In this document: piece by piece, positions 10,328-13,385 of the stretch
Layout: each line of letters starts with the position of its first letter
How positions within the stretch are numbered: position 1 is the first letter of the stretch
IMG/VR virus record: IMGVR_UViG_3300014205_000180
Coordinates: 1 to 64,000 of that record
Source of the DNA: a virus
Taxonomy: Duplodnaviria; Caudoviricetes
Reading direction: 5' to 3' (one strand)
Length of the DNA stretch: 64,000 nucleotides
Notes under the pieces: model-generated
What the model saw: only the letters and a program-made list of their open reading frames with translations
Told to the model about the DNA's origin: nothing
The model's database searches: none
Position numbers and translations under genes: made by a program

Positions 10328-10921
10328 TCAATCCTTCTTTGGAACTAATATTTTACTTCCTGGCTTATAAGGTGCAAAGACAAGCCCAGGACTAGTTTTA
10401 GATTTACCTTTAAATCCCATTTTAATATTACTAAGGCTAAGATCTTCTTTAGCCTCAGCGCTCCATTTGCATTTTAATGAACGTCGTTCAGCTTTTATCT
10501 TTATTATTACCATTCCATTTTTTTCGACTCTATCGCCAGATTCTAAATCACGCCATCTTCTTAATTGTTCTGGAACAGATTGAAGTCTGTATGGTGCACA
10601 TGTCCTGCAAATATGTTCTTGGTACCAATTTCCAGGTATTCTAACATCATGAATGAAACAACATCCATCACCAACATCTAATATTCTAATTGGCCATTCA
10701 ATCTTTTTGTTTTTAAACAATTCACTAATATTTTCAGCGTTAAAATTAAGAACTTTATAAAACGTTAATTTTTTACCTGATTTTACTCCAAGCGAAAAAC
10801 AATTTCCGCGAGGCAGTGGGAAATCTTTAGGAATATAACCAACACAAGTCTGACTACCCATTTCAATAGCATTAAGGAATTTAGTTGGTTTTGAAACTGC
10901 CTTAATGTCTTTTAAATTCAT
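10328..10921 (-). CDS. hypothetical protein with C-terminal T4 gp23-like capsid segments
   Basis: IKAERRSLKCKWSAEAKEDL and MGFKGKSKTSPGLVFAPYKP resemble two conserved gp23 blocks. Confidence 0.65.
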   Translation of the reverse strand: MNLKDIKAVSKPTKFLNAIEMGSQTCVGYIPKDFPLPRGNCFSLGVKSGKKLTFYKVLNFNAENISELFKNKKIEWPIRILDVGDGCCFIHDVRIPGNWYQEHICRTCAPYRLQSVPEQLRRWRDLESGDRVEKNGMVIIKIKAERRSLKCKWSAEAKEDLSLSNIKMGFKGKSKTSPGLVFAPYKPGSKILVPKKD

Positions 10922-10954
10922 ATAAATAAAATACCTAACTCAAAAATATTTAAT

Positions 10955-11875
10955 ATGAAGTTGAATAGTTTAAATAAGGATAAATTAAGAATTGGGGTGA
11001 TAGGGTATTGTTCTCAATATTTTGATAAAAAAGATGCTAAAAATAAATTAGAAAAAACAGTCAAGAATATAGTAAAAAACAACAAACTTCCAGTACATAT
11101 AGTGTCGGGCCTTACAAATATTGGAATGATGGCGATAGCATATAAAGTGGCAAGCGAAAATGGCTACAAAACAGTTGGCTATGCATGTAAAAAAGCTTTA
11201 GATATGGAATTATTTGATGTTGATAAGAAACATATTATTGGAGATAAGTGGGGAGATGAAAGCGAAGAATTTATTAATAATATAGACGTATTAATAAAAG
11301 TTGGAGGTGGTGAACAATCTAAGAAAGAATTAAAAATGGCTAAAGAATTAGGTATTGAAACTCATGAGTGCGATGTAAAAGAGAAAATATCATATTGTTT
11401 AATGGGATATCTTAATAAAGATTCAGCAAAAGAAATTCATGAACAAGCCAAGAATTTAAAAGCCAGAGAAGTTAAAAAACCAGATTACCACATAACTATA
11501 AGATACTGGTTAGCTGATCCTAAAGAAAGTATCTCAAAAGTAACCAAATATTTAGATGATAGATTTAAGCATCCAGTGCTTATTGAAGCAGATTATGAAG
11601 GCGAAACTGAAACTTTTGGTAATGAAAAATCACATGTACTTCTTGTTAATAGCAAATCTTTAAACGAATTCCAAAAGGACATTGATAATAAATTGCAAAG
11701 CTTTGGCGCTCCACCATCAGATTTTCCTGATTATAGGGCGCACATAACTGTCGCAGAAGGCGTAACAAAGAATGTTAAAATTAAGAATTGTAAAGTGCTG
11801 ATAAACAAATGGATTCTTACTACTAACAATGATTCAAACGAAAAACCTAAAGTTATTTGGGAAAAGGAATTCTAG
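10955..11875 (+). CDS. SLOG domain fused to 2H phosphodiesterase (Acb1/gp57B-like)
   Basis: N-terminal IGVIG, IVSGLTNIG, TVG and VGGGEQSKKE SLOG-type motifs; C-terminal HxT pair YHITIRY and GAPPSDFPDYRAHITVA. Confidence 0.75.
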   Translation: MKLNSLNKDKLRIGVIGYCSQYFDKKDAKNKLEKTVKNIVKNNKLPVHIVSGLTNIGMMAIAYKVASENGYKTVGYACKKALDMELFDVDKKHIIGDKWGDESEEFINNIDVLIKVGGGEQSKKELKMAKELGIETHECDVKEKISYCLMGYLNKDSAKEIHEQAKNLKAREVKKPDYHITIRYWLADPKESISKVTKYLDDRFKHPVLIEADYEGETETFGNEKSHVLLVNSKSLNEFQKDIDNKLQSFGAPPSDFPDYRAHITVAEGVTKNVKIKNCKVLINKWILTTNNDSNEKPKVIWEKEF

Positions 11876-12317
11876 AGATATCTTCAGCATAAATTCCAAC
11901 AACTTTACTATCCATTGATAATTGGGTTCTTAATCTAGTTAATTGCGGATGATGCTTTAAACAATTGCTTAATCTTCTACCAGAATCAGTGTTAATAATT
12001 TTAATTTTTGCATTTACTTTACCATCTTTTACTTCAACATCTGTTACCACAGCACCAGCACGCATTAAATCATTACGACCACTTTCTCCATCAATATTGT
12101 CAAATACCAATACAGTCTTTTCTTTTATTCTTTTTTGCAGATCCTCAATTGCTTTTTCTACTACTTCTTTTGGATAAACCATTCCATTAGCGTTTGGCTT
12201 ATTATCATTGCAGACTTCCATAATGTTAACGACTAAATCAGGATTATCTTGTTTAAACTGTTCGCGCATTTTTGCGTCACGGATGGTCTGCTCATTTTCA
12301 TCGTCATGATTACTCAT
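11853..12317 (-). CDS. T4 gp21-like prohead protease homologue, apparently inactive
   Basis: NANGMVYPKEVVEKAI and AKIKIINTDSGR match gp21 blocks; the ELDHP His and GxSSRG Ser motifs are absent. Confidence 0.6.
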   Translation of the reverse strand: MSNHDDENEQTIRDAKMREQFKQDNPDLVVNIMEVCNDNKPNANGMVYPKEVVEKAIEDLQKRIKEKTVLVFDNIDGESGRNDLMRAGAVVTDVEVKDGKVNAKIKIINTDSGRRLSNCLKHHPQLTRLRTQLSMDSKVVGIYAEDISRIPFPK

Positions 12318-12689: not shown

Positions 12690-13385
12690 GTGAAAACCAT
12701 AAGCGTAATAATCCACTCAATATCAGCGTGCAATCTCAAATGCACTCATTGTGGTCAAGGGACCTGGAGAAAAGATCTTCCCACATATAAGTTAACATTT
12801 GAGCAGGTTAAAAAATTTTTAGATGTTTGTAAAGAAAGTGACTATTCTATTAAAGAAATTTTGATAAGTGGTGGTGAACCTTCATTATGGAAAGATCTTG
12901 AATCATCAGTAAAATTAATGAAGCAATCTGAAGTTGTCAAATCGGTAACATTGTTTAGTAACGGCACTAGATTAATGAGCGATGAAGTTATTAAAAATGT
13001 TAATCAGATAATAGTTTCATATTATAATGGATCTAATAAAGAAGCAGTCGATGAAATGGTCAAAAAGTGTAAAGAATATGGTGTTAGATTTAAATTGAAG
13101 GATAAGCATAAATTCTGGCCATGGCCAACAGAAAAAGTTGAAGGAACTGTTCCAGGGCAGTGTGTATGCACACCAATGTCATTACTTGGTGATGAAATAG
13201 CTGTATGTGGTCAAGTATTTGAACTTGAAAGAAGATTTAATTTAGATTGTTCAACTCATAAAATCAAAGTAGAAAATGGATTCCTTGATCGTTTAAATAT
13301 GAAAATAGGAACGTACGATATTTGTGGATATTGCATTGAAAATAGGTCAGTTCAAAGAAAAATGGATAAAGTGTTAAACGATTAG
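12690..13385 (+). CDS. radical SAM protein
   Basis: CNLKCTHC cluster motif, SGGEP, FSNG and C-terminal Cys cluster. Confidence 0.85.
   Translation: MKTISVIIHSISACNLKCTHCGQGTWRKDLPTYKLTFEQVKKFLDVCKESDYSIKEILISGGEPSLWKDLESSVKLMKQSEVVKSVTLFSNGTRLMSDEVIKNVNQIIVSYYNGSNKEAVDEMVKKCKEYGVRFKLKDKHKFWPWPTEKVEGTVPGQCVCTPMSLLGDEIAVCGQVFELERRFNLDCSTHKIKVENGFLDRLNMKIGTYDICGYCIENRSVQRKMDKVLND

Follow-up and report, generated by a model that had tools for sequence, protein, structure and literature searches.

A SLOG domain joined to an Acb1-like 2H phosphodiesterase in a T4-like phage: a candidate counter-defence enzyme

Nucleases of the Acb1 type are an established route by which phages get past CBASS. Many large phages encode SLOG domains, but no function of these viral domains has, to our knowledge, been tested; nor do we know of any characterised Acb1 that carries an N-terminal SLOG domain, as the protein described here does. 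Acb1 is the product of T4 gene 57B and is represented in the PDB by the protein of Erwinia phage FBB1 (7T26/7T27) and in Pfam by PF23474 (Hobbs et al. 2022, PMC9117128), and the roles of its catalytic, ligand-contact and lid residues, on which we rely below, come from the same work. For viral SLOGs, binding or processing of immune signals derived from nucleotides has been predicted (PMC9503650, Iyer, Burroughs, Anantharaman and Aravind 2022). The fusion partners recorded in that survey are Macro, NADAR, HTH, HNH, exonuclease, helicase and guanylate kinase domains, and a text search of it finds no SLOG-2H or SLOG-HD combination, unlike the situation reported here. Phage 2H domains have also been described in polyvalent and in MuF- or portal-fused proteins (Iyer et al. 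2017, PMC5512222). The protein studied here is like these in having relatives in a 2358-aa polyvalent protein and in a jumbo-phage head module, whereas in our window the gene is short, stands alone and lies away from the head module. A fusion of SLOG with 2H or with Acb1 is not mentioned in either of these two papers, in a 2021 jumbo-phage paper, in a 2025 survey of viral 2H proteins or in the results of a full-text literature search.

The window that we analysed is a 64-kb stretch (64,000 nucleotides) at the start of an IMG/VR viral contig of 150,988 bp, which is estimated to be ~60% complete. We lean towards the view that its SLOG-2H protein acts in counter-defence by breaking down cyclic oligonucleotide signals, with the SLOG domain binding or further processing the nucleotide. 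Below we describe the protein and its relatives, and weigh this favoured reading against three others as the relevant evidence appears.

The gene, its surroundings and its two domains

A reading made earlier from the sequence only had placed an open reading frame at 10955-11875 and assigned it a SLOG and a 2H domain. The coordinates match exactly: the frame opens with ATG and is intact over 306 codons, with zero internal stops. The gene, its domains and its overlapping neighbour are as follows.

10955..11875, plus strand: whole ORF of the SLOG-2H fusion protein (P0001), 306 aa, from the ORF scan and the AlphaFold2 model
10982..11377, plus strand: SLOG domain (LOG/DprA-type Rossmannoid), residues ~10-141, with LDcluster4 as nearest Pfam family and with fold matches
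11387..11872, plus strand: 2H phosphodiesterase domain, residues ~145-306, of an Acb1-like lineage, with an extra helix at residues ~194-203
11853..12317, minus strand: partial head-maturation-protease-like protein, 154 aa, the convergent neighbour

The SLOG-2H gene is a lone plus-strand gene with minus-strand genes on either side. A gap of 33 nt separates its start from that of the divergent ORF 10328-10921, and at its 3' end it shares 23 nt with the convergent ORF 11853-12317. These neighbours had been read as a capsid-fragment chimera and a dead prohead protease. The protease-like gene is real but weak in its matches (S77 at 22-24 bits and phrog_207 at E 7.9e-9, from Pfam and PHROG profiles), and its pairing with the SLOG-2H gene is retained in related phages, one of which (L003) has a protease-like protein of 75% identity. 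The capsid call is not borne out as stated, its Gp23 match being sub-threshold (E 0.03) and accompanied by no PHROG. The phage is T4-like, and its genuine gp23 major capsid gene (136394-137617 of the full record, 261 bits) and gp21-type prohead protease (141407-141868, 72.6 bits) both lie far from the SLOG-2H gene, which sits in an accessory or early region outside the head module. A promoter and terminator scan around the gene returned no more than chance, and megablast with the surrounding 3 kb found no match among isolate phages.

An AlphaFold2 model built with 87 sequences has two domains (pLDDT 93.4, pTM 0.86), and the pTM suggests that the SLOG domain packs against the 2H domain in a defined manner; a homodimer prediction with two copies of the protein scored 0.00, which speaks neither for nor against a dimer. 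Structural matches were obtained by VIA-align against this model, with 50 matches listed. The N-terminal half shows the SLOG fold (Z 12.3-15.9) and the C-terminal half the 2H fold (Z 12.5-15.7), and both of the earlier domain calls prove right. The motifs that had prompted the 2H call are where they were said to be, YHITIRY at residues 178-184 (H179/T181) and GAPPSDFPDYRAHITVA at residues 251-267 (H263/T265). The same pair of domains recurs in 19 homologues at 41-91% identity, and together the motifs, the Pfam and PHROG profiles, the model and the conserved architecture place the fusion far beyond chance.

A fold search of BFVD returned no protein of evidently the same architecture; two matches of ~330 aa could be aligned along their full length only at rmsd >16 Å. 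When the protein was compared by tblastn with 50,697 phage records, only its N-domain was matched, in Bacillus phage G and Sinorhizobium phage Phosso. The same search with P0020, a relative described in the next section, gave 1495 Acb1-only matches and 0 that spanned both domains. The full-length SLOG-2H fusion was thus not found among the 50,697 phage records. The intact and conserved two-domain protein is real; the architectural variant is new, and the type of counter-defence enzyme is known.

The SLOG domain and its fusion partners

The Pfam family nearest to the N-terminal domain is LDcluster4 (PF18306), taken here as its Pfam model defines it. Residues 10-132 score 18.8 bits against a cut-off of 26.3, so the gathering threshold is not reached. 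LDcluster4 is matched at E<0.01 by 37 of the 87 family members sampled, and a few members match LSDAT_prok, YAcAr or DprA instead. Relatives that exceed the cut-off include P0163 (40.7 bits), P0150 (36.6), P0023 (27.7) and P0047 (27.0). Since some members pass and the query does not, its SLOG domain belongs to a divergent branch of LDcluster4 or lies beside it. It resembles the viral SLOG/LDcluster4 proteins in superfamily and in phage distribution, with enrichment in jumbo and other large phages. An exhaustive profile-free search yielded 407 representatives of the family, most of them stand-alone proteins of ~135-150 aa; the family is largely viral, its Atlas clusters are labelled SLOG cluster4, and it includes gp345 of Bacillus phage G (46% identical).

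The fold Z scores and the 87-sequence alignment agree on a Rossmannoid three-layer fold with glycine-rich loops, in which G14, G17, G52, G57 and G117-119 are near-invariant. Two conserved loops are of particular relevance to ligand binding.

11252..11263, plus strand: GDES loop, residues 100-103, with G100, E102 and S103 near-invariant across 87 sequences
11303..11329, plus strand: GGGxQSxxE motif, residues 117-125, with G117-G119, Q121 and E125 near-invariant

The conserved GDES loop is likely to form the ligand pocket. The GGGxQSxxE motif, which we take to be the positional counterpart of the PGGxGTxxE nucleotide-binding and catalytic loop of LOG, places the near-invariant E125 at the position of the LOG catalytic Glu. 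The kinship is also seen in the structural matches, as residues 7-144 match Moco-binding or carrier proteins at Z 15.9 (6y01) and 14.1, LOG at 13.9-13.1 (5its at 13.9), DprA at 12.7 (3uqz) and the ADPR-binding SLOG domain of TRPM2 at 12.3 (8src). The LOG and Moco-carrier structures 5ITS, 5ZBL, 2IZ5 and 6Y01 are the best matches of the N-domain (Z 13.6-15.9) at 16-23% identity. The domain nevertheless differs from LOG in having the conserved GDES loop but no counterpart of the catalytic arginine that is evident from sequence, and in giving no match to the LOG Pfam family. The arginine without an obvious counterpart is an observation that counts against the favoured reading.

The same observation speaks against nucleotide salvage, in which the 2H domain would turn 2',3'-cyclic NMPs from host RNA into NMPs, and a LOG-like SLOG N-ribohydrolase would free bases and ribose phosphate. 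LOG is among the closest folds (Z 13-14), and the window is rich in genes of nucleotide metabolism, encoding a ribonucleotide reductase, an NAD-dependent DNA ligase and a polymerase. On the other side, relatives occur in a jumbo-phage head module and in a polyvalent protein, as would be expected of an effector delivered early, and the HD partner of the family, described below, resembles cyclic-dinucleotide phosphodiesterases. We consider salvage very improbable, and the least likely of the readings.

Members of the SLOG family carry 2H domains of at least four highly dissimilar kinds, with the SLOG domain first in some proteins and last in others. In P0020 a same-family SLOG is followed by a canonical Acb1 (124.7 bits), and P0138 is a truncated relative of this protein. 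P0054 has Acb1 at the N-terminus and SLOG at the C-terminus, and P0071 is the 2358-aa polyvalent protein, with 2H, Sod_Fe_C, SLOG, topoisomerase IB and M91-like peptidase domains. Among the 2H-fused types, pairwise identity of the SLOG domains is 37-57%, no higher than with stand-alone members, whereas the 2H domains of these types score only ~20-28 bits against each other. The nearest relative of the P0020 2H domain is T4 Acb1, while that of the query 2H domain is the stand-alone protein P0151. Similar SLOG domains, mutually distant 2H domains, two domain orders and the tree of SLOG domains thus indicate at least three or four separate SLOG-2H fusion events.

A further partner of the SLOG family is DUF5662, which is fused to it in P0022 and P0023 and is encoded by the adjoining gene in L012. 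An alignment of DUF5662 reveals invariant H..HD..H..HH..D residues. In an exhaustive VIA search with its confident model (pLDDT 89.6), the best six structural matches were all cyclic-dinucleotide HD phosphodiesterases, namely PgpH with c-di-AMP (Z 8.4) and HD-GYP proteins (Z 7.3-6.4), with V-cGAP3 and other HD hydrolases lower. Z scores of 8.4-6.4 are modest, and weak by themselves for a helical fold, and a Foldseek search of the model against the PDB returned no significant match. Taken together, the motif and the structural matches make it likely that DUF5662 is an HD-type phosphohydrolase resembling the cyclic-dinucleotide enzymes. One SLOG family is therefore tied to phosphodiesterases of two unrelated folds. 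The family is also joined to an AlkB-like dioxygenase, ParB_N, a resolvase fragment and DUF5661; the AlkB-like, ParB_N and resolvase partners point to work on nucleic acids and not on small signals, against the favoured reading.

The earlier proposal of an anti-signalling protein gains from the fact that this SLOG family has independently acquired 2H partners of several lineages as well as an HD-type phosphodiesterase. The recurrent pairing is explained by a shared pathway no less well than by a second, separate target, and the simplest account is that SLOG and phosphodiesterase work on one class of nucleotide.

The other possibility is that the two heads have two targets, the 2H domain degrading CBASS signals and the SLOG domain sponging or hydrolysing ADP-ribose signals made by TIR proteins (1''-2'/1''-3' gcADPR and other Thoeris signals). 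The SLOG domain of ThsA senses cADPR isomers, and viral SLOGs have been predicted to sense or degrade cADPr-type signals (PMC9503650). In the same direction, the TRPM2 match noted above (Z 12.3) is to an ADPR-binding SLOG, and a family consisting mostly of stand-alone phage proteins of ~140 aa has a function of its own. However, nothing ties the query SLOG family to ADPr. The Macro, NADAR and Nudix fusions of other viral SLOGs are not seen in it, LOG and Moco-carrier proteins head its structural matches, and its repeated association with two folds of phosphodiesterase is better explained by a shared pathway. The ThsA SLOG is absent among the 50 structural matches listed, which is uninformative about the ligand, just as a general likeness to SLOG folds carries no information on binding of 1''-3' gcADPR. 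Two separate targets are in our judgement unlikely, and coverage of Thoeris by the SLOG head, which the sequence-only reading had suggested, is similarly doubtful.

Placement of the 2H domain

Both HxT motifs of the 2H superfamily are conserved in the homologues, and the 2H fold (Z 12.5-15.7) extends over residues 143-306. The principal residues of the domain are as follows.

11489..11497, plus strand: first HxT catalytic motif, H179-I-T181, aligning with Acb1 H44/T46
11741..11749, plus strand: second HxT catalytic motif, H263-I-T265, aligning with Acb1 H113/T115
11858..11860, plus strand: W302 in the family-invariant C-terminal IWE, aligning with the Acb1 lid residue W147

Across the 19 homologues, H179, T181 and T265 are invariant and H263 is nearly so. 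The domain is very probably an active phosphodiesterase.

Which kind of 2H enzyme it is depends on the comparison used. By structure, residues 143-306 match drCPDase (Z 15.7), LigT (15.2), the Arabidopsis Appr>p CPDase (14.2), rotavirus VP3 (13.9) and Acb1 (7t26, Z 12.5, rmsd 2.6 Å over 131/137 residues). The domain is thus like LigT/ThpR and CPDase (5LDM, 5H7E, 1FSI) in its 2H fold, in its highest raw Z scores (15.2-15.7) and in its length of ~165 aa. By Pfam, LigT_PEase, a half-domain model of the same clan, scores 27.4 bits against a cut-off of 23.3, whereas Acb1 (PF23474) scores 25.4 against a cut-off of 27, with residues 154-271 aligned to positions 10-113 of the 144-position profile. In a six-frame search of the record Acb1 reaches 26.1 bits, still under the 27-bit cut-off, and the long-form relative P0009 reaches 26.6. 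The protein also scores 18.2 bits with 2_5_RNA_ligase2, and PHROG 755, a 2H family labelled 'RNA ligase', matches it at E 3.8e-8. That LigT_PEase passes its Pfam cut-off and Acb1 fails, with LigT and CPDase fold scores as high or higher, counts against the favoured reading.

Because the fold fails to separate Acb1 from LigT here, sequence profiles were used for the placement. With a query-lineage profile of 20 sequences, hhalign gives E 1.3e-4 (probability 54%) against T4-type Acb1, and E 0.13 (probability 0.5%) against E. coli ThpR/LigT. The only sequence hit in the PDB is Acb1 7t26, at E 8e-8 with a broad profile, a value helped by the more Acb1-like members of that profile, and at a marginal 0.011 with the query-lineage profile. 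A phmmer search of PDB sequences with the 2H half alone found nothing, and a homologue search limited to residues 146-306 added no further relatives.

Conservation around the catalytic tetrad leads in the same direction. The domain shares with Acb1 a compact 2H fold, the paired HxT motifs and a GA..D[FY].DY.[AP]HIT block, of which DFPDY precedes the second HxT. Acb1 stacking residues W74 and F107 align with F220 and F257, F257 lying within this block at the position of the base-stacking F107, and they, like W302, are conserved in the lineage. In addition, both proteins are encoded by T4-like phages, and besides the SLOG-2H gene no other gene resembling Acb1 occurs in the 151 kb of the record, which is ~60% complete. 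The differences from Acb1 are an identity of only ~20%, a score 1.6 bits under the Pfam cut-off, the extra helix at residues ~194-203, and the fate of two ligand contacts: Y12 aligns with C148, and E141 aligns with E296, which is not conserved across the lineage. The loss of these two contacts is a further observation against the favoured reading.

We conclude from the profile comparisons that the 2H half belongs to a divergent lineage whose nearest characterised relative is Acb1, and that it is not a certified member of PF23474. The earlier description as 'Acb1-like' therefore stands as far as kinship is concerned, the domain being closer to Acb1 than to LigT by profile; membership in the Acb1 family is borderline, given the Pfam score, the lineage-profile E value and the equally similar LigT and CPDase folds.

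These comparisons bear directly on the possibility of RNA repair, or clean-up of ADPr>p. A LigT- or CPDase-type 2H domain would here open the 2',3'-cyclic phosphate ends of RNA, or ADP-ribose 1'',2''-cyclic phosphate, after attack by a host anticodon nuclease, and the SLOG domain would handle the nucleotide or ADPr by-product. The LigT_PEase score, the label '2'-5' RNA ligase' given by JGI and PHROG, and the LigT, drCPDase and Appr>p CPDase fold scores are all in keeping with such a role, as is the AlkB-like SLOG partner, which suggests RNA or DNA base repair; an RNA-ligase-like match (PF09414) also lies 70 kb away, at 24.3 bits and below its cut-off. Against it, the profile of E. coli ThpR is far more distant than that of Acb1, the PDB sequence searches return no LigT, and the surroundings of the motifs are of the Acb1 type. 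The genomic context is also unlike that of LigT/ThpR: no RNA ligase stands beside the SLOG-2H gene in 8 of the 8 loci inspected, the ligase-like ORF has no PHROG support, and phage polyvalent-type 2H domains are not associated with RNA ligases (PMC5512222). The 151-kb record holds no Rnl1, KptA, clear RNA ligase or second Acb1-like gene, which favours cyclic oligonucleotides as substrates; the absence of repair genes from a record only ~60% complete is weak evidence. The profile comparison and the missing ligase, kinase and KptA context in this incomplete genome weaken the case for RNA repair, a role that we hold to be unlikely.

Proposed role and the jumbo-phage long form

In the mechanism that we favour, one rigid polypeptide would present two nucleotide-handling heads. 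The C-terminal 2H domain, as a metal-independent phosphodiesterase of an Acb1-like lineage, would most likely open alarm signals like those of CBASS or type III CRISPR, cyclic di- or tri-nucleotides with 3'-5' linkages, by way of a 2',3'-cyclic phosphate intermediate. The SLOG domain would bind a nucleotide-derived ligand through its GDES and GGGxQSxxE loops and would serve the same pathway, either by capturing the signal or by further processing the substrate or product of the 2H domain, for example through a LOG-like attack on a ribosyl linkage. Some viral 2H groups were inactive on the 18 signalling nucleotides of a published panel (bioRxiv 2025.08.21.671373), which counts against this mechanism. 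On balance, a counter-signalling role for the protein seems somewhat the better bet.

A more tentative proposal concerns the SLOG family of phages as a whole, which may have an anti-defence activity exerted in tandem with a phosphodiesterase, as a two-step signal eraser or a capture-and-cleave device. The SLOG domain would keep the immune nucleotide in place for the nuclease, or else break its ribosyl linkage once the ring has been opened. If so, the repeated recruitment of SLOG to 2H and HD phosphodiesterases would reflect a general principle of phage counter-signalling and, in a wider version, the stand-alone ~140-aa SLOGs of large phages would be signal sponges or hydrolases. The SLOG-2H protein and its relatives offer a concrete handle on the function of phage SLOGs, as pairing with phosphodiesterases of two unrelated folds predicts that SLOG acts on the same nucleotides. 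They raise the question of whether immune signals are erased by binding plus cleavage or by two successive cleavages, and whether the gain lies in wider evasion (CBASS, type III CRISPR, Thoeris) or in avoiding systems that sense decoys, such as Panoptes.

The homologues fall into two groups. Close homologues are 68-91% identical and 306-310 aa long, and a second group, at 41-55% identity and 466-495 aa, is found on contigs of up to 418 kb. The second group has an extra C-terminal domain of ~160 aa that is helical and belongs to no known family. Gene order is conserved in five loci of this long form.

Order 1: giant protein with a head-maturation-protease domain (phrog_18299)
Order 2: two small genes
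Order 3: Sod_Fe_C-like gene (74.6 bits), abutting the SLOG-2H gene
Order 4: gene for SLOG, 2H and the C-terminal domain
Order 5: gene of ~200 aa
Order 6: major head protein (phrog_2522, 248 bits)

The long form thus occupies the usual site of scaffold and internal head proteins in the jumbo-phage head module, and is therefore probably packaged. Packaged 2H effectors, injected to degrade or counter oligonucleotide signals, have been proposed previously (PMC5512222, PMC9503650), and the placement of the long form fits this proposal, adding a candidate to the packaged and injected counter-defence enzymes.

The Sod_Fe_C partner of the jumbo relatives was not found in the available 151 kb of the window phage. 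Synteny between the window phage and the jumbo-phage loci was considered as an argument and dropped, as the SLOG-2H gene is the only one that they have in common. That only this gene is common to both types of phage suggests that it moves as a module. In a tree of the SLOG domains, the short forms make up one clade (support 99) inside the clade of the query type (support 89).

Immediate neighbours of the SLOG-2H gene

The SLOG-2H gene is flanked by two genes on the opposite strand, with a third of note on its own strand (window positions):

10328-10921, minus strand: 197-aa ORF upstream of the SLOG-2H gene
11853-12317, minus strand: 154-aa ORF, head maturation protease-like
12690-13385, plus strand: small radical SAM protein

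The downstream ORF runs into the SLOG-2H gene, sharing its final 23 nt. It scores below the cut-off against Pfam S77 (22-24 bits) and matches phrog_207 with an E value of 7.9e-9, the protease match being confined to approximately positions 28-131 of the 198 in the profile. The genuine head maturation protease of this genome is encoded at 141407-141868 of the full record, and the ORF is a second T4 gp21-type copy, partial and divergent. The protease-like ORF and the SLOG-2H gene are kept paired in related phages, with 75% identity in loci L003 and L004.

The sequence-only reading had labelled the upstream ORF a capsid-fragment chimera, a description that profile searches do not bear out: the sole match is a sub-threshold one to Gp23 (E 0.03, 14 bits, over 22 residues), and PHROG returned none. 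Just 33 nt (10922-10954) separate this divergent gene from the SLOG-2H ATG, and they contain no Shine-Dalgarno-like sequence. Together with a GC content of ~32%, this hints that the host may do without Shine-Dalgarno sequences, as in, for example, Bacteroidota.

The radical SAM gene lies two genes downstream of the SLOG-2H gene (Pfam, 57.7 bits; weak match to a QueE-like PHROG).

Partner domains in relatives

Genes for proteins with an Fe/Mn superoxide dismutase C-terminal domain (Sod_Fe_C) lie upstream of the long SLOG-2H genes of jumbo phages:

L002, 5324-6001
L007, 4310-4999
L009, 2899-3579
L010, 3843-4505

The domain assignment is solid (74.6 bits, in proteins of 220-229 aa). The two genes are a few bases apart in four of the five jumbo-phage loci, the exception being L010, where one small gene intervenes. 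The association is three-way: 2H, Sod_Fe_C, and SLOG also occur together on one chain, in the polyvalent protein P0071.

The long forms also share a conserved helical C-terminal extension:

P0009, residues ~315-469 (gene at L002 6001-7410): extension of ~160 aa, also in other long forms

It has no matches in Pfam or the PDB. Because the long form sits in the head module, the extension may serve to target the protein to the capsid or to bind the scaffold.

The phage SLOG family of the SLOG-2H protein has a further partner, DUF5662, either joined to it or beside it:

P0022 and P0023: fused
L012, 780-1349: adjacent gene

Its invariant residues are H..HD..H..HH..D, and in structural comparison it comes closest to the cyclic-dinucleotide phosphodiesterases PgpH and HD-GYP (Z 8.4-6.4). 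Pfam DUF5662 thus looks like an HD-superfamily phosphohydrolase.

A weak ligase match elsewhere in the genome

One further match lies in L011, a part of the same record:

81187-81657 (genome), minus strand: weak match to RNA_ligase PF09414

The match, in a 222-aa ORF without PHROG support, reaches 24.3 bits against a cut-off of 27. The adjacent ORF is phage sigma factor-like.
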